Positions 2,371-35,709 of a stretch of 53,657 bases of DNA are shown one piece after another (position 1 is the stretch's first letter; every line of letters starts with the position of its first letter). Source of the stretch: an uncultured Candidatus Saccharibacteria bacterium. GTDB lineage: Bacteria > Patescibacteriota > Saccharimonadia > Saccharimonadales > UBA4665. Location of the stretch: NCBI GenBank assembly GCA_964493045.1, contig CAZBLZ010000004.1, positions 1,605-55,261 of the forward strand. Reading direction: 5' to 3'. The translations under genes were made by a program, and so were the position numbers. A model generated the notes under the pieces. That model did no database searches. It was not told the origin of the DNA and saw only the letters and a list, made by a program, of their open reading frames with translations.

Positions 2371-2471
2371 AAAGCTCTTTAGGACTAGTACGATAAGGCT
2401 ATAGCTAGATTGTGTTTACGCTTGGAACTATTTCTGGTAGTCTTAATGAAGACAGGGAACTACAAGGGATT

Positions 2472-3230
2472 ATGAAACATATCATTGCGATTACGAACCA
2501 GAAGGGCGGTGTAGGTAAAACCACCACTGCGGTTAATTTAGCTGCGCAACTTGCTACGGCTAATCGCCGGGTTATGCTTGTCGATCTGGACCCTCAGGGG
2601 AATGCCTCAAGTTCTTTAGGAATTGACAAAGAAGCTCTGAATCAAACATTGTACGACGTACTAGTTTCCAATGTTGAGCCAAGTAATATAGTCTTGCCGA
2701 CAAATATTCAAAACCTGTTTATACTTCCTACGAATAGCCGACTAGCTCAGGCCGAAGTAGATCTGGTAAGTGTCCCGCAGCGAGAGTTTCGTTTGAAAAA
2801 TATGCTCCAAACCATTGATGCTGAAGTTATTATTATTGATTGTCCACCAGCTTTGGGGTTGTTAACTATCAATGCGTTGAGCGCTGCAACAGATGTGTTG
2901 ATCCCTGTGCAGTCAGAGTATTTTGCACTAGAAGGCTTAGGTCAATTACTTCAAACTGTACAGTTAGTAAAACAAGGCCTGAATCCCCGCCTTGAGATTT
3001 TAGGTGTAGTGCTGACTATGTTTAATAAACGGATGGTATTAAGCGAACAGGTCCAGGCCGAAGTTGCACAGCATTTCGGCGATAAGCTTTTCAAGACCGT
3101 CATACCAAGAAATGTGCGCCTAGCTGAAGCCCCAAGCTATGGGCGAACTATCTTTGAACACGATAAGTGGTCAAAGGGCGCTCGGGCGTATAAGCAATTG
3201 GCAAAAGAAGTCGCACAGCGATTGACCTAG
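2472..3230 (+). CDS. parA: Chromosome partitioning ATPase ParA/Soj
   Basis: Deviant Walker A motif KGGVGKTTTAVNLA directly after MKHIIAITNQ. I chose the ATG at 2472 over the upstream GTG at 2412 that opens the ORF. Confidence 0.9.
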   Translation: MKHIIAITNQKGGVGKTTTAVNLAAQLATANRRVMLVDLDPQGNASSSLGIDKEALNQTLYDVLVSNVEPSNIVLPTNIQNLFILPTNSRLAQAEVDLVSVPQREFRLKNMLQTIDAEVIIIDCPPALGLLTINALSAATDVLIPVQSEYFALEGLGQLLQTVQLVKQGLNPRLEILGVVLTMFNKRMVLSEQVQAEVAQHFGDKLFKTVIPRNVRLAEAPSYGRTIFEHDKWSKGARAYKQLAKEVAQRLT

Positions 3231-29501: not shown

Positions 29502-30293
29502 ATGGATTATTTGAGGGAACGGTCGCTGCCGTATCAGCCGGGGCAGACGATTCCGTTTAAGGTGAGTCGCAGTAAGATAGAATTGTTTAAACAATGTCCG
29601 CGCTGTTTTTGGCTTGATACTCGGTTGAAAATCACACGGCCCAGCAGTCCACCGTTTAACATCAATAAAACAATCGATGAACTCTATAAGAAAGAGTTCG
29701 ATGTACATCGTATGGCGGGTACGCCTCATCCGATTATGACAAAAAATAAACTGAATGGTGTCATACCATATGTGCATAAAGATCTCGACACCTGGCGCTA
29801 TAACTTCACTGGTGTAGTGGCATTGCACGAACCAACTAATTTACATGTGTTTGGTGCGGTTGATGATGTATGGGTAAACGAAGCGGGTGAGCTAATCGTA
29901 GTGGACTACAAGGCTACGAGTAAAGATAAGCCGGTGAGTATAAGTAGTGGCTGGCAGATTAGCTACAAACGACAAATGGAAGTATACCAATGGTTACTTC
30001 GTCAGAATGGATTTAAAGTGAGTGATACGGGATATTTTGTATACACAAATGCCCGAATGGATGTTGATGGCTTCGGTGATCATCTTGAATTCAAGACGAA
30101 ACTAATTCCATACACTGGCAATACAGACTGGGTTGAACCTACCTTGCAGGCGATGAAAGAATGTCTAGAGGGTGAAATGCCAGCAGTCGGTGATAGTATC
30201 ATGGGCGGTCCCTGCGAACATTGTGACTATGCACGGCGGCGAACTGAGCTAACGCTTAAGCATATGCAAAGCCGGAAACAGCCTAAGAAATAA
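29502..30293 (+). CDS. PD-(D/E)xK nuclease, RecB/Cas4-like, with a probable Cys cluster
   Basis: N-terminal SRSKIELFKQCPRCFW, core GAVDDVWV...ELIVVDYKAT (D...DxK), a QxxxY motif (RQMEVYQWLL) and C-terminal Cys residues (KEC...GGPCEHCDY). Confidence 0.75.
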   Translation: MDYLRERSLPYQPGQTIPFKVSRSKIELFKQCPRCFWLDTRLKITRPSSPPFNINKTIDELYKKEFDVHRMAGTPHPIMTKNKLNGVIPYVHKDLDTWRYNFTGVVALHEPTNLHVFGAVDDVWVNEAGELIVVDYKATSKDKPVSISSGWQISYKRQMEVYQWLLRQNGFKVSDTGYFVYTNARMDVDGFGDHLEFKTKLIPYTGNTDWVEPTLQAMKECLEGEMPAVGDSIMGGPCEHCDYARRRTELTLKHMQSRKQPKK

Positions 30294-30320: not shown

Positions 30321-31439
30321 TTAAGCCTTTTCGTTGAAAGGTAAGTGACGATAGATCTCTTGCCAGTTTGCTGGTTGGCTGTTGGCGAGGTCACGCTCGG
30401 CTCGTTCTTGGAGTTCAATTTCAGTTAGTGGCATGATACTGAGACGTTTATCTTCAAGCAACATAGTAAGATCGGCATGAGATATAAGCATGTTTTCAAT
30501 GCGTTCTTTAGGGACGCCGGAATGTAGATTACTGTGAAGTGTCTGTTGTTTAATCCATAGGGCGAGCTCTTTTTGTGGATCATGAGTCAAACGTTCTCGG
30601 ATCTTGATTCGCTGGCTTGCGCGGCGCTCGATGGTGCGAGAACGCTTATTCCAGTGCTTGCGAACGGCTTCTATGGTTAGGGCTGTATTGCAGAGCTCTG
30701 AGTATTCTTTATGTAGAATGGTGGGCAAGTATAGGTGATCGATCTTTTCTGTAGAGAGAGCATGGCGCCACTTCTTCTCATTGATAATCGTCTCGGCCTC
30801 GTGCTGTTTTAGCGTATATTCTCCAGCATCGACTAGAATAACTTTGTTTGATTTAGTAATTACTCCAATGTTCTCTAATTTGAAGGTGGTTTCCATGATA
30901 CCGTACTCCCACAGGCGGTAATGCAAGTCAATAATTGCACGCATAACCTGGCGTACCTGATGAACGTGGTGGATGGTAATTCTCTGGGGCGGCATTTCAG
31001 CAAAACGGAATGGATGCAGGTATTCAGCCATAGGTGTCACATGGTCTTGCGTTAAATGGAGCGGCATAAAGTAGCCGTGTTCAGGCTGAATTGGTCGCGC
31101 CAGAATAGGTACGATTTTAAGGTTGCCAAGTAAATTCATAAGCTGAGGGGATGCCGCATAGATACCCTGGAGTAGCTCAGGAAGCTGCTGCTTTTGGAGC
31201 ATTAGCTTGTGAATTCGTCGATCTGCTTCGGCTTCTGACATACCGACCTCAGAGAAATAAGGTGTTAGAACGTATTTACTCTCGGTGAAATCAAGCGGTA
31301 CTTTTACTACGCGACCTGTAGGTGTGCCATCGTTCGCAAGGATAGCATAGACACGGAATTGCGCACCGTGGTCTATGTATAGATATCGGTACAAAGTTCC
31401 TGAGATGTCGTTGGTCAAGATATTGTGTTGATCGGTCAT
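30321..31439 (-). CDS. Uncharacterised protein-kinase-like paralog, long type (A1)
   Basis: Motifs DHGAQFRVYA, GRVVKVPLDFTESK, LTQDHV, WEYGIMETTFKLENIG and LVDAGEYT. AGGTGG lies 4 nt upstream of the ATG at 31439 (the ORF opens at 31457). Gene existence is solid; the fold call is motif-based only. Confidence 0.6.
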   Translation of the reverse strand: MTDQHNILTNDISGTLYRYLYIDHGAQFRVYAILANDGTPTGRVVKVPLDFTESKYVLTPYFSEVGMSEAEADRRIHKLMLQKQQLPELLQGIYAASPQLMNLLGNLKIVPILARPIQPEHGYFMPLHLTQDHVTPMAEYLHPFRFAEMPPQRITIHHVHQVRQVMRAIIDLHYRLWEYGIMETTFKLENIGVITKSNKVILVDAGEYTLKQHEAETIINEKKWRHALSTEKIDHLYLPTILHKEYSELCNTALTIEAVRKHWNKRSRTIERRASQRIKIRERLTHDPQKELALWIKQQTLHSNLHSGVPKERIENMLISHADLTMLLEDKRLSIMPLTEIELQERAERDLANSQPANWQEIYRHLPFNEKA

Positions 31440-31440
31440 C

Positions 31441-32316
31441 TTACCACCTGTCCACATAATCTATTTCAGCAGCTTTGGCGGCGATGAAACTTTGGATTGG
31501 ATCATTATCCGATGGCTGACATGCACTGCAATGATGCTTTTTATGCCAGTGCGCTCGGAAGTTTTCGACCGAGAAAGCATCGTCAAGCGTTTTACAGTAA
31601 TAATCTTGAAGTTGCTTGGGGATTTGTGGGAAATCAACCTTCTCTGGCATAGTTGATTGTAGCCAGCGTTTTTCGGTTAGAGCGCGTTCTATGAAGTCGG
31701 CATCACTAGTATATTCACCCAAGTCTACTAATACGAAATTGCCACTGCTATCTAGGCCAGTGTCACCAATTTTGAGTACGTAGTCTGCATAGCCGTGCTC
31801 CCAGGCTTTGTAGGTTTGCTGGATATACAATTCGATGAGTTGACGAATCTTACTGAGATCACCGCGTCCTAAAGAAGGAAGTGTTGCCAAGTTGCGAAGC
31901 ATATCTCCGGTCATAGTAACCTTGTCCTGAGTGTATACCACGCGGCCAACACTCCATTGTTTTTCGGTAGTGTCTTCTGGCAGACTTGTACCAACGGGAA
32001 CTATACGTGGGTTACCGAAAAGGGCTAAAAAATCAGTCTGATCGTAAAAAGGGTGCTCGACCATATCAGGAATACGCGCCTTGCCGTTAAAAAGAGTGTG
32101 AATGCGTGCCTCTATCGACGGGATTTCTTGTGGCGATACTGGGTTCACAGTATGGCGACGTTCTGAGATAGCAAGCCTAGTCTCTTCTTTGGTAAGTGGG
32201 ATCTTAAGCACACGACCATCATGCGTGTCATAAGTATGAAATTGACTGCCACTGCCGAGTTCAGGGAAGGGAACATATTCATCGTTCAGGTGCTGATTCA
32301 TGTAGAGTGTGTTCAT
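31441..32316 (-). CDS. Uncharacterised protein-kinase-like paralog, short type (B1)
   Basis: Motifs ELGSGSQFHTY, GRVLKIPL, VYTQDKV, WEHGYADYVLKIGDTG and LVDLGEYTSD, with C-terminal HHCSAC...AEIDYVDRW. Its ATG shares one nucleotide with the A2 stop codon (TAATG). Confidence 0.6.
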   Translation of the reverse strand: MNTLYMNQHLNDEYVPFPELGSGSQFHTYDTHDGRVLKIPLTKEETRLAISERRHTVNPVSPQEIPSIEARIHTLFNGKARIPDMVEHPFYDQTDFLALFGNPRIVPVGTSLPEDTTEKQWSVGRVVYTQDKVTMTGDMLRNLATLPSLGRGDLSKIRQLIELYIQQTYKAWEHGYADYVLKIGDTGLDSSGNFVLVDLGEYTSDADFIERALTEKRWLQSTMPEKVDFPQIPKQLQDYYCKTLDDAFSVENFRAHWHKKHHCSACQPSDNDPIQSFIAAKAAEIDYVDRW

Positions 32317-33479
32317 TATTGTTTAGTCCAATTCTCGTTGTGTGGCAGATGTAACACAGGAGATGACACTATGATAGGTGGATCGCCGGCTGCTATTGCG
32401 CGTTCGATTTTTTCCTCTATAAAGGCAGCGCTAGCAGGATTCTTGCGGTTACGGTCCGCTAGTAAGATACTCAGGTCTGCAACGGGTATGTCGAGGTCAT
32501 CAATACTGTGGTCTGTGAAACCACGGTAAAGAGATGTGGAGAGATTATGACGTGCAACCCAGTAGCTAACCGATTTTTTAGAGTCGAGCGTCGTGAGTTC
32601 TTTTAGACGAAGACGTTTCGCGTGCAGTTGCTCTATGTGGGTGCTTTTTTGACGCCATTTCTTATGGAGCTGGCTTACGGTGAATGCTTGGTCACAAGTA
32701 TCTGCATAGTATTCATGTAGGATAGCTGGCATAAATTGGTAATCAATCTTCCGAGGCATAAGTGGGTGTAGCCAGCGTTTTTCTTCTATGATTTTTTCAG
32801 CCTGATTAAGGTCTGTGATGTGTTCTGCTAGGTCCATCCAGATAAGCTGGGGCGAACCGGTACTCCTGAACCTAATACCGAAGTTCTCTGGCTTAAAAAC
32901 GAATTCAAAAATACCATACTGCCAGATAAGATAATGCAGTTCAATGATTTGCTCAACTATGCTTTTTAGCATGTGTATGCTCCGACCATCGAGAGTACGC
33001 GTGTACTTATTGTTGGCGAGCCTGAAGCGTTGTAGATATGTGTCGAGTGTTAGGACATAATCTTGGGTAAAAAAGATGGGTAGGTAGTATGCCGGTTGGC
33101 TTTGTTGTTCGTCGACAGGGATAGGAGTTTGTAAGATCTTGAGATTACCTAAGGATTGGTTGAAGGTAGTGTCTTCACCTAGGACTCCTTGGACTAGGCC
33201 TGGCATTGCATGCTTAAATTGCATGACCTCGCGGGCTCGGGCATCGGCAAGCACATCCAATTCTTCCTCGGTGGTGTAAGTTGCAGTGAGCTTTAGAGGG
33301 TCCCAGATTGCATCTTTACTCTCAGTGAAATCAAGCGGTACCTTTATAACCCTGCCAGTGGGCTTATCAGCGAGTGTATAGACTGCATAGACACGGAATT
33401 GCGCACCATGCCCCACAAAATAGTAATGGTAATATGTACCAATGAGGGGTGTAGTTTCTGGGGTAGGAATGCTGCTCAT
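32316..33479 (-). CDS. Uncharacterised protein-kinase-like paralog, long type (A2)
   Basis: Motifs GHGAQFRVYA, GRVIKVPLDFTESK, FTQDYV, WQYGIFEFVFKPENFG and WMDLAEHIT. Its ATG directly abuts the B2 stop codon. Confidence 0.6.
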   Translation of the reverse strand: MSSIPTPETTPLIGTYYHYYFVGHGAQFRVYAVYTLADKPTGRVIKVPLDFTESKDAIWDPLKLTATYTTEEELDVLADARAREVMQFKHAMPGLVQGVLGEDTTFNQSLGNLKILQTPIPVDEQQSQPAYYLPIFFTQDYVLTLDTYLQRFRLANNKYTRTLDGRSIHMLKSIVEQIIELHYLIWQYGIFEFVFKPENFGIRFRSTGSPQLIWMDLAEHITDLNQAEKIIEEKRWLHPLMPRKIDYQFMPAILHEYYADTCDQAFTVSQLHKKWRQKSTHIEQLHAKRLRLKELTTLDSKKSVSYWVARHNLSTSLYRGFTDHSIDDLDIPVADLSILLADRNRKNPASAAFIEEKIERAIAAGDPPIIVSSPVLHLPHNENWTKQ

Positions 33480-34325
33480 CTATAGTCTGTCAATATAATC
33501 AATTTCTGCTATCCGAGCGGATACGAATGCAGTGATAGTGGTAGCTTCCTCGGTACAGTCGGTACAGACATGTTTAGCTCGCCAGCGTTTTTTGATTTCT
33601 GTTTCTGTGAAGGCGTTTTCGAGAGTTTCTATGTAAAAAGCCTCAAGACTTTCAGGTAGCTTTGGGAAGTCGTGCTTACTATGATTGACGTTATCAAGCC
33701 ACCATTTTTCGTTGATTGCGCGGACCATAAAATCAAGGTCACTTGTCCATTCTCCTAGGTCAACGCCGATAAGGTTGCCATGAGCATCTAGGCCTGTGTC
33801 GCCCAGTTTAAAAACGTAATCACCGTAGCCATATTCCCAAATGTCGTATACGTATTGCACGTAGTCCTCAACATACCGTTTGAGTTTTTGCTTGTCACCA
33901 TTACCGAGCTGGGGCAGTGCGGTAATAGCTCGCAACATACCGTTCGCCATCTCAACCTTGTTCTGTGTATATACAAAATGTGCGCTACCCCATTTTTTCT
34001 CATGAGTATCCTCTGGAAGGGTAACTGGGGTGATGGTAGGATCGCCCAGTAGATGTAAGAAAGGTACAGGATCCTGAAATGCATGTGTCACCATGCTAGG
34101 GATACGGGCTTTGCTGTTCATGAATGTCTGTACACGCATTTCCACGCTGGCGATTTCCTCGATTGTTCCGTGCATGACATTTCGTCGTCGTCTTGCAACT
34201 TGGTAGGTTTCAGCCTCGGTTAAAGGGATTTTGAGCACGCGACCGTTTTGCATGTCATACGCCTTGAACTGCGCGCCGTGTCCAAGTTCAGAATAAGTAG
34301 CCATGTTATTTGTGAGTTGTTGCAT
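33480..34325 (-). CDS. Uncharacterised protein-kinase-like paralog, short type (B2)
   Basis: Motifs ELGHGAQFKAY, GRVLKIPL, VYTQNKV, WEYGYGDYVFKLGDTG and GVDLGEWTSD, with C-terminal HVCTDC...AEIDYIDRL. I chose the start at 34325 by alignment with B1. The ORF opens at 34397 and neither start has a clear SD. Confidence 0.6.
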   Translation of the reverse strand: MQQLTNNMATYSELGHGAQFKAYDMQNGRVLKIPLTEAETYQVARRRRNVMHGTIEEIASVEMRVQTFMNSKARIPSMVTHAFQDPVPFLHLLGDPTITPVTLPEDTHEKKWGSAHFVYTQNKVEMANGMLRAITALPQLGNGDKQKLKRYVEDYVQYVYDIWEYGYGDYVFKLGDTGLDAHGNLIGVDLGEWTSDLDFMVRAINEKWWLDNVNHSKHDFPKLPESLEAFYIETLENAFTETEIKKRWRAKHVCTDCTEEATTITAFVSARIAEIDYIDRL

Positions 34326-34461
34326 ATAAATAAATTTCACACCGTTGTACAGAATTCTGATGATAATAACATAAAAAAGTCCATTAGTGTAATTCATGTT
34401 ACGGTTATGTTTATGAGAGTAATTACTCGGGACGTGGGACAGGATAGGCTATACTAGTGGC

Positions 34462-35709
34462 ATGTTAGACATTCAATTTATTCGTGAAAACGCTGAACTC
34501 GTCCAAAAAAAGGCGGAAGAGAAAGGCTATAAAAATGTCAAGGTTGCTGAACTACTGGAGATTGATACCGAACGGCGGAGCAAGCTGACGCAGATTGAAG
34601 AGCTGCGCGCTCGACGCAATGCGCTGACTACTGAGATGAAGGGCCAGAAGCCGACCGAAGAGCAATTAACAACAGGTAGGCAATTGAAAGATGAGATCGG
34701 CAGTCGTGAAAGCGAACTTAAAGGTATTGAGGCCAAATATGATGAGCGGATTGCCGGTATTCCAAATGTAACGTTTGATGACGTGCCTATTGGCGGCGAA
34801 GAGGATAGTGTTGAAATTAAAGTTGTTGGCGATACTCCAACTGGCGCTCAAGACCACTTGGACTTTGTGACCAAACGTGACTGGGTGGACTTTGACCGTG
34901 GCGCTAAAGTTGCTGGCGCCAAATTTTATTTCTTGAAAGGCGATCTAGCGCTGCTTGAAAACGCTTTGATTCAATATGCGCTCAATTTTGTGACTGAGAA
35001 GGGCTTTACCTTCATGACTGTTCCACATATGGTTAGCTCACGCGTAGCCACTGGTACGGGTTTTGCGCCACGTACTAGTGATCAAAGTGACGAGTACTAT
35101 ATCGAAGGTGAAGATCTGTCTTTGATTGCTACGGCGGAAATGCCACTAACCGGCTTTCACGCTGATGAAATTTTAGATGAGGCTCAGTTGCCGCTTATGT
35201 ATGCAGGCTTGAGCCCAAGCTACCGTAAAGAAGCAGGAACATACGGCAAGCATACCCGTGGTTTGTTCCGTGTCCATCAGTTCAACAAACTAGAGATGTA
35301 TGTATTTGCATTACCTGAACAAAGTCGCGAGATGCATGAACGTATTTTGGCACTTGAAGAAGAGCTATGGCAGTCAATCGGAATCCCGTACCACGTCATC
35401 AACATTGCCAGTGGTGATCTGGGTGCGCCAGCCGCTAAAAAATATGACATCGAATACTGGTCTCCTGTTGATGAAAAATATCGTGAGCTTACTAGCTGTT
35501 CTAACTGCACTGATTTCCAGGCACGCAATTTAAATATTCGTGTACGTCGCAAAGATGGGCGTATTGAAATGGTTCATACACTGAACGGTACTGCAGTTTC
35601 ACTTGCGCGCTCATTAGTGGTCTTGATTGAAAACTTCCAGAATGAAGACGGAACTTTGACCGTACCGGAAGTATTGCGCCCTTACATGAGTGGCAGGGAA
35701 GTTTTGTAA
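34462..35709 (+). CDS. serS: Seryl-tRNA synthetase
   Basis: N-terminal coiled-coil arm plus class II motifs (FRVHQFNKLE; GTAVSLARSLVVLIEN). Confidence 0.95.
   Translation: MLDIQFIRENAELVQKKAEEKGYKNVKVAELLEIDTERRSKLTQIEELRARRNALTTEMKGQKPTEEQLTTGRQLKDEIGSRESELKGIEAKYDERIAGIPNVTFDDVPIGGEEDSVEIKVVGDTPTGAQDHLDFVTKRDWVDFDRGAKVAGAKFYFLKGDLALLENALIQYALNFVTEKGFTFMTVPHMVSSRVATGTGFAPRTSDQSDEYYIEGEDLSLIATAEMPLTGFHADEILDEAQLPLMYAGLSPSYRKEAGTYGKHTRGLFRVHQFNKLEMYVFALPEQSREMHERILALEEELWQSIGIPYHVINIASGDLGAPAAKKYDIEYWSPVDEKYRELTSCSNCTDFQARNLNIRVRRKDGRIEMVHTLNGTAVSLARSLVVLIENFQNEDGTLTVPEVLRPYMSGREVL

Follow-up and report, generated by a model that had tools for sequence, protein, structure and literature searches.

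Patescibacteria have tiny genomes, ~1 Mb, in which a large share of the genes have no assigned function. A 53,657-nt stretch of DNA from an uncultured Candidatus Saccharibacteria bacterium (the window; all coordinates are window positions) contains four adjacent minus-strand open reading frames (ORFs), in the order B2-A2-B1-A1, that occupy positions 30321 to 34325, each abutting or overlapping its neighbour, and that encode homologous proteins. What kind of proteins are these, and why are four of them kept together? The reading that we favour, with a probability of about 60%, is that they are four AceK-like proteins with a protein-kinase-like (PKL) fold, probably all active ATP-dependent enzymes, that assemble as two B·A heteromers or as one heterotetramer.

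Two alternating protein types in one operon

The proteins, which can be aligned over ~290 aa with 41 columns invariant, are of two types, a short B type and a long A type. A1 is 37% identical to A2 and 24-26% identical to the B proteins. When the A-type hidden Markov model (HMM) was run on the B proteins, and the B-type HMM on the A proteins, the cross-type scores were 105-160 bits, which at the sequence level makes the paralogy of all four certain. A first-pass annotation of the window had likewise described homology over this length in two alternating types. It had also credited the A type with an extra helical tail of ~100 aa. The A proteins do extend further at the C-terminus, but a conserved I-D motif at the C-terminus of the B proteins aligns with I/D positions within the tail, which in the alignment is an insertion plus an extension, and not wholly extra. 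The free C-terminus of the B type is invariant, B1 orthologs ending in AEIDY[VI]DRW and B2 orthologs in EIDYIDRL, and four invariant residues that are specific to the B type, H88, H261, C263 and C266, are a candidate His2Cys2 metal site.

The coordinates and gene junctions given at first pass are borne out by the sequence. The B2 stop codon (TAG, 33482-33480) directly abuts the A2 ATG at 33479; A2 and B1 meet in the sequence TAATG (32318-32314), with one base common to the A2 stop and the B1 start; and the B1 stop (TAA, 31443-31441) lies one base (TAA-g-ATG) before the A1 ATG at 31439, upstream of which there is an AGGTGG sequence. The maximal A1 ORF is 30321-31457, the likely start is ATG 31439, and A1 orthologs are also called at 372 aa. 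The maximal B2 ORF (33480-34397) encodes 305 aa and, because its N-terminal extension is not conserved among orthologs, the true start is probably M25 or M32 (at 34304). The B2 length of ~281 aa first proposed is that of the M25 product, and the M32 product, 274 aa, is the other candidate. A sequence scan found no terminator-like sites within the operon, which we counted toward a single transcription unit. A promoter consensus scan found no match in 34326-34461, upstream of B2; promoter-like matches were below chance expectation, and the scan, for promoters and terminators alike, was uninformative. Two ORFs of 98-102 aa, at 32221-32529 (+) and 33788-34084 (-), lie across the operon genes, in antisense orientation or in another frame, and are most likely spurious.

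Fold, active site and the link to AceK

Scans against the models of Pfam, NCBIfam, PADLOC and PHROGs matched none of the four proteins, even at permissive thresholds. There was no match at E<=10 to the Pfam APH, Choline_kinase, Fructosamin_kin or other small-molecule kinase models, and a search of PDB sequences with a profile of the four paralogs was also negative. No account of the four-paralog family was found in the literature, including a 2026 oral-microbiome preprint on PKL domains and a 2023 Saccharibacteria transposon sequencing (Tn-seq) paper. The proteins therefore belong, as first suggested, to an unnamed family, and structure prediction agrees with the kinase- or APH-like fold that was suggested with it. 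AlphaFold2 models were obtained for B1, with a predicted local distance difference test score (pLDDT) of 85.6 and a predicted template modelling score (pTM) of 0.82, and for A2 (pLDDT 90.1, pTM 0.86). Foldseek matches in the PDB with a probability of 1.00, which are almost without exception PKL folds, include RIOK2, GAK, WbdD, AceK, APH(2''), ROP18/ROP5 and Bud32 for B1, and ERK2, Rio2, PINK1, EphA3, ULK and Bud32 for A2; matches among viral models (BFVD) are mostly giant-virus kinases. At E<=1e-3, nearly all the Foldseek matches listed in the PDB and BFVD have the PKL fold. For these models the bilobal PKL fold class is secure, with no solved structure a close match. The Gly-rich GxGxQF sequence and the RV.K38 sequence lie on modelled strands 1-3 of B1, and the secondary structure of both models has a minimal C-lobe without an activation segment or APE-type substrate-binding elements.

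The residues expected to bind nucleotide and Mg2+ are retained throughout. G23, Q25, R35, K38, P40, E45, Q130, W172, G175, K182, G187, D198, E201, W218, K226, D228 and W257 (B1 numbering, used throughout) are kept without exception in the four groups of orthologs that correspond to the four operon positions, as are an acid (D/E) at 178 and N/D at 185. K38 is invariant in all 53 cassette proteins, and the B1 residues from the catalytic loop to the Mg-binding motif are invariant in 27/27 B-type orthologs. Among 113 distant relatives, K38 is present in 112, Q130 in 112, D/E178 in 111, N185 in 106, D198 in 112 and E201 in 111. The catalytic-loop pattern [DE]xxxKxx[ND]xG read from the window sequence at first pass is present in this region, now refined in that it is best read against AceK. 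Because each protein keeps a full nucleotide and Mg2+ site with the acid-to-Lys spacing of AceK, all four most likely bind ATP and are capable of catalysis, whether as phosphotransferases or as ATPases. Relative to the closest relative, L030 (~87% nucleotide identity), the ratio of nonsynonymous to synonymous substitution rates (dN/dS) is 0.029 for B2, 0.033 for A2, 0.023 for B1 and 0.023 for A1, and 0.027 and 0.038 for the neighbouring nuclease and tRNA methyltransferase genes, respectively. The four genes are under equally strong, housekeeping-level purifying selection.

The motifs quoted at first pass are all present, and the systematic differences that it saw between the two types hold across the 53 orthologs. 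At position 178 the B proteins have D and the A proteins E (in A1, 8 E and 4 D); at 184 B has G and A has E, at 185 B has D and A has N, and at 200 B has G and A has Ala (in A1, 7 A and 5 G). The Gly-rich loop of A1, and of no other paralog, has Asp in place of its first Gly, in 12/12 orthologs. Such differences could mean that one type, A or B, is a dead pseudokinase that scaffolds or activates the other, as the first-pass annotation had considered, and the first domain of a fused distant relative, P0126, demonstrates that such asymmetry can evolve, having SGFGE in place of DFGE and so no Mg-binding Asp. In the operon family, however, K38, E45, D/E178, K182, N/D185, D198 and E201 are kept in all four orthogroups, the D-to-E (178) and N-to-D (185) differences are conservative for metal and proton chemistry, and the dN/dS values are equal for all four genes. 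A heteromer of an active kinase with a regulatory pseudokinase is consequently quite improbable, and a classical pseudokinase partner was rejected on the retention of all catalytic residues in the four orthogroups.

In a set of 5.8 billion proteins, close homologs of the operon proteins are few: clusters at 90% identity number 43 for the B type and 74 for the A type. Those with a named source organism are from Candidatus Saccharimonadales, in line with the Patescibacteria origin presumed at first pass. A further homolog search, with the broad alignment, yielded only B-type proteins that were already known. An exhaustive search by profile of 1.84 billion cluster representatives (50% identity) identified 450 clusters at E<=1e-3 and 11 at E<=1e-30; with only 11 clusters at the stricter level, the A/B family itself is tiny. 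The wider set consists mostly of 205-225-aa single-domain proteins (~210 aa), also unmatched in Pfam, with the motifs IGxGxQYxVYD, RVxKxP, LGNP, YxQDKV, W.YGF.D.VFNF..N.G and DFGE, and a C-terminal W...YY...T...W. When the four window proteins were aligned with distant relatives (alignment A5, 123 sequences), the resulting profile retrieved AceK chains from the PDB sequences at E=1.1e-4 to 2.8e-4, and hhalign matched it to residues 381-486 of Escherichia coli AceK with 81% probability (E=1.2e-5). Weak, sub-threshold matches to the Pfam AceK_kinase model (PF06315) were found in 12/123 members, the best at E=5e-6; P0127, for example, scores 16.2 bits against a cut-off of 29.3. The four operon proteins themselves had no match to PF06315 at E<=10 and so fall short of the Pfam gathering threshold. 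The aligned pairs are N/D185 with AceK N462, D198 with D475 and E201 with E478. On these profile comparisons, the AceK kinase domain is the only known family that can be reached by sequence from the operon proteins.

Small relatives of 209-237 aa adjoin NUDIX hydrolase genes in 2/5 distinct contexts examined, in loci L011-L013 (3506-4165, 6001-6630) and L026/L027 (5001-5714). In L011-L013 a second gene, of 209-219 aa, lies beside another NUDIX gene and may be a paralog. This adjacency is a possible link of the small relatives to nucleotide-derived substrates. BLAST comparison of the other ORFs of L011, L014, L026, L028 and L029 with the window and the cassette loci revealed no shared housekeeping genes.

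Table 1. Positions of the operon genes, their active-site and C-terminal segments, and the upstream region
Feature	Position	Strand	Description
B2	33480-34325	-	Short-type kinase-fold paralog; 281 aa from M25 or 274 aa from M32 (probable starts); position-1 orthogroup; B-type HMM 416 bits
A2	32316-33479	-	Long-type kinase-fold paralog, 387 aa, C-terminal helical extension; position-2 orthogroup
B1	31441-32316	-	Short-type kinase-fold paralog, 291 aa; position-3 orthogroup
A1	30321-31439	-	Long-type kinase-fold paralog, 372 aa from ATG 31439; position-4 orthogroup
B1 Gly-rich loop to beta3 Lys	32197-32256	-	GSGSQF...GRVLK38IP
A1 Gly-rich loop to beta3 Lys	31296-31373	-	
A2 Gly-rich loop to beta3 Lys	33336-33413	-	
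B2 Gly-rich loop to beta3 Lys	34224-34283	-	
B1 catalytic loop to Mg-binding motif	31714-31785	-	D178-YVL-K182-IG-D185 ... D198-LG-E201
A2 catalytic loop to Mg-binding motif	32823-32906	-	E192-FVF-K196-PE-N199 ... D216-LA-E219
A1 catalytic loop to Mg-binding motif	30819-30893	-	E183-TTF-K187-LE-N190 ... D204-AG-E207
B2 catalytic loop to Mg-binding motif	33750-33821	-	D169-YVF-K173-LG-D176 ... D189-LG-E192
B1 C-terminal module	31444-31536	-	H261-x-C263-xx-C266 and invariant terminal AEIDYVDRW-COOH
B2 C-terminal module	33483-33572	-	Ends EIDYIDRL-COOH
Divergent intergenic region B2-serS	34326-34461	.	Presumed operon promoter region
serS	34462-35709	+	Divergent, upstream of B2

Inheritance of the cassette and its surroundings

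The survey extended the A-B linkage beyond the source genome, as the first-pass reading required. Complete cassettes are present in 14 Saccharimonadales genomes (the window, L001, L002, L005, L009, L010, L016, L018, L019, L021, L022, L030, L031 and L032), and in 14/14 the order is B (~280 aa)-A (~385)-B (~291)-A (~372), neighbouring genes abutting or overlapping; shorter contigs agree with this order. A scan of GTDB genomes contributed 3 loci and a metagenome scan 10 loci, numbers that are limited by the search patterns and are not estimates of prevalence. In a neighbour-joining tree, the 53 copies form four clean orthogroups by operon position, each with one copy per genome, and the branching within the orthogroups is alike in all four. 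Four position-specific orthogroups point to a single ancient duplication, B-A to B-A-B-A, that predates the divergence of the Saccharimonadales lineages examined, in keeping with the initial proposal of a pair duplicated once. One genome, Candidatus Saccharibacteria Bin_28 (L008), has a B1-A1 pair only, adjoining serS.

The surroundings of the cassette are also conserved in part. The serS gene is divergent upstream in eight genomes (window, L001, L008, L010, L016, L019, L030 and L032), and a PD-(D/E)XK gene is convergent downstream in 7/14 full-cassette genomes, the most divergent clade included. In one sub-clade (L002, L005, L018, L031 and L009) the cassette is at another location. The neighbours are serS, the PD-(D/E)XK nuclease, S30AE and secA genes, or sortase, P-type ATPase and phosphoribosyltransferase genes; no further neighbour is common to the cassette genomes, nor is any metabolic gene consistently adjacent. 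In the window, the convergent gene (29502-30293, +; Pfam PDDEXK_1, E=2e-12) is 27 nt from the end of A1, confirming the Cas4-like neighbour reported at first pass. It encodes a stand-alone PD-(D/E)XK/Cas4-like nuclease with C-terminal Cys residues, and the flanks examined showed neither a CRISPR array nor further cas genes.

This nuclease gene, and the restriction of a rare family to one lineage, are what might suggest a mobile module that serves in anti-phage defence or as a toxin, such as a conflict system based on a HipA-like or another kinase, and defence or conflict had been among the functions initially considered. We regard this as very improbable. The four proteins have no matches in PADLOC or PHROGs, and searches of phage, plasmid and IMG/VR collections, in which the viral scan used the A and B alignment, found no relatives. 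The GC content of the operon (0.454-0.459) is the same as in the rest of the window, there is one cassette copy per genome with the same branching in the four orthogroups, and the dN/dS values are housekeeping-like. The synteny serS-cassette-nuclease is common to the most divergent clades, which makes the nuclease a long-standing neighbour within a housekeeping region, and there are no integrase or other mobility genes near the cassette in the loci examined. A defence island was rejected on the lack of PADLOC, PHROGs and mobile-element relatives, the matching GC content and the conserved synteny. The cassette is an operon of the chromosome that is passed on vertically, and no mobile island.

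Two further observations concern individual genomes. The window and L030 are ~87% identical in DNA over the whole region, and their proteins are 93-96% identical, but ~920 bp within serS (window 34745-35665, L030 2294-3268) have no nucleotide match; the two SerRS proteins (415 and 433 aa) are only 52% identical, and L001 has a serS of the window type (90% aa identity). The pattern suggests that recombination has replaced most of serS, immediately next to the operon. The second concerns L031 (GCA_033792395.1, JARAUW010000001.1, 957,675 bp), which was deposited as Streptomyces caniscabiei and has a full cassette. Its gene content, with TsaE/TsaD, RNase Y and sortase, is typically Saccharimonadales, and it is probably a Saccharibacteria epibiont or contaminant of the Streptomyces culture, and as such possibly a cultivable carrier of the operon.

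Pairing, substrates and known kinase systems

That A and B proteins act together is suggested by their fixed alternating order, by the translational coupling of their genes, by the solitary B1-A1 pair in L008 and by two features of distant relatives, an overlapping pair in L014 and the fusion of two complete domains in one polypeptide in P0125, P0126 and P0127. A further protein, P0146 (NCBI MCB1195470.1, 3552 aa, partial, from a source named only as 'bacterium'), has at least seven partial or complete kinase-like domain copies in two clusters, residues 4-944 and 2436-3069. The C-terminal segment of B1 is the least confident part of its model (pLDDT 41-64) yet is among the most conserved stretches of the protein, as would be expected if the segment needs a partner to fold.

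We envisage four cytoplasmic, single-domain, minimal PKL proteins, each with a full nucleotide and Mg2+ site composed of GxGxQF, K38, D/E178 with K182, N/D185 and D198 within D-x-[GA]-E. The functional unit would be a B·A pair, duplicated once, from which the cell would build two forms of heterodimer (B2·A2 and B1·A1) or, alternatively, a single complex of all four, B2A2B1A1. Coupled translation would keep the production of the subunits at a constant ratio, docking of the B subunit may occur via the free peptide conserved at its C-terminus, and the A subunit contributes its helical C-terminal extension.

Several points weigh against this proposal. Translational coupling is found, too, for genes whose products do not interact, and as most distant relatives are single ~210-aa proteins, pairing is not obligatory in the superfamily. 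The template modelling scores (TM-scores) of the models against solved kinases are low, 0.23-0.43, with 9-16% identity, so that the likeness is at the level of the fold class only. The HMM and hhalign alignments set AceK Asp457 opposite B1 V180, and the family acid at 178 opposite Pro455; to equate D/E178 with Asp457 requires an insertion of two to three residues before Asn185. AceK Asp477 is Gly in the B type and Ala in the A type. Finally, the NUDIX adjacency in 2/5 contexts and the APH fold matches are compatible with a small-molecule substrate.

Such a substrate is central to the reading in which all four are kinases for small molecules, of the APH/choline-kinase type, that act separately or sequentially on a metabolite, an envelope precursor or an antibiotic of the host actinobacterium, the operon serving co-regulation only. 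APH(2'') structures are among the Foldseek matches of B1, the modelled C-lobe is minimal and lacks activation segment and APE-type elements, NUDIX genes flank small relatives in L011-13 and L026/27, and most relatives, at ~210 aa, stand alone. Nevertheless, no small-molecule kinase model in Pfam was matched at E<=10, the cassette has no consistently adjacent metabolic gene, and domain fusions and strict alternation suggest physical pairing. At the sequence level the proteins are linked to AceK alone, a protein kinase/phosphatase, and the Lys four residues after the acid matches AceK Lys461, which is in contact with the gamma-phosphate and with the substrate's hydroxyl. On balance we consider small-molecule kinases unlikely.

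AceK, RIO kinases and Bud32 act on proteins or ribonucleoproteins, and ATPase activity is prominent among them. With AceK, Rio2 and Bud32 as nearest relatives, analogy slightly favours a protein or ribonucleoprotein substrate, or a role as an ATPase switch, over a small-molecule substrate for the operon proteins. A bolder form of the heteromer proposal, which we put forward as speculative and rather unlikely, is that they make up an obligate hetero-oligomeric PKL machine of one Saccharimonadales clade, in which the relocated catalytic acid and the longer loop would underlie a non-canonical chemistry or an unusual substrate. Candidate activities for such a machine are an ATPase switch, a phosphotransferase acting on the translation apparatus, suggested by the conserved divergent pairing with serS and by the hibernation-factor gene, or nucleotide transfer as in other atypical PKL enzymes. 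If this were so, the ~450 clusters of 210-aa relatives would constitute a new, widespread class of minimal AceK-like enzymes.

Both the PKL fold and its superfamily are familiar, and further PKL families are described at regular intervals, which limits the significance of one more. New here are the family itself, a catalytic loop that is longer than in AceK and whose acid is shifted from the AceK position in the alignments, and a conserved operon of four alternating paralogs. Four hypothetical proteins become a defined AceK-like branch of the PKL superfamily, for which the active-site signature is spelled out and A·B pairing is predicted, and the branch extends to ~450 clusters at 50% identity, mostly of ~210-aa proteins. 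AceK, long treated as an isolated bacterial kinase family, thereby gains minimal relatives that could show how its catalytic core evolved. As 4 kb of a small genome are spent on four paralogs in strict order and under housekeeping-level selection, the operon must matter to these epibionts.

Among known systems, APH(2'')-IVa and its relatives share the PKL fold (Foldseek matches at E~5e-4). The operon proteins differ from APH- and choline-type kinases in having no Pfam APH match, a different catalytic-loop signature and no context of resistance or metabolic genes; membership of the APH family was rejected. The RIO kinases (Rio2/RIOK2) and Bud32, also minimal PKL proteins without an activation segment, were the top Foldseek matches for both models, but with TM-scores of only 0.3-0.37 and without similarity at the sequence level: there was no RIO or Bud32 match in Pfam or NCBIfam, and the profile searches of PDB sequences retrieved no RIO or Bud32 chain. 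The operon proteins lack the HGDxxxxN catalytic loop as well as the winged-helix and flexible-loop elements of RIO kinases, and RIO family membership was rejected for want of a profile or sequence-level match.

AceK is the closest comparison. AceK chains have among the highest query TM-scores for B1, ~0.40, and both have the PKL fold. In AceK, Asp457 is the catalytic base and Lys461 is in contact with the gamma-phosphate and with the substrate's hydroxyl (PMC3747045); in the operon family the acid at 178 is followed four residues on by K182, the same spacing. An Asn/Asp is located 13 residues before the Mg-binding Asp in the AceK manner, and the D-x-x-E motif is shared, as D475-Y-D-E478 in AceK and D198-L-G-E201 in the family. 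The catalytic loop of the operon proteins is, however, two to three residues longer than that of AceK, between K182 and position 185. They are about half the size of AceK and lack its N-terminal regulatory domain (PF20423); the Gly-rich loop begins at residues 15-25 in all four proteins, which leaves no room for this ~300-aa domain. AceK has no counterpart of the four-paralog operon, and the operon neighbours are serS, a Ribosomal_S30AE hibernation factor gene and secA, not aceBA, as in the aceBAK operon of E. coli, nor the gene for isocitrate dehydrogenase (IDH). Membership of the AceK family itself was rejected, with PF06315 scores below threshold and both the N-terminal domain and the glyoxylate-shunt context absent.

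For the arrangement of the proteins, the closest parallel is the kinase-pseudokinase pair ROP18/ROP5 of Toxoplasma, both of which are fold matches. Unlike that pair, both operon types keep every catalytic residue, and their pairing is one that we infer; like ROP18 and ROP5, they are paralogous PKL domains, and their alternation and the fusions in distant relatives suggest that they function as a pair.

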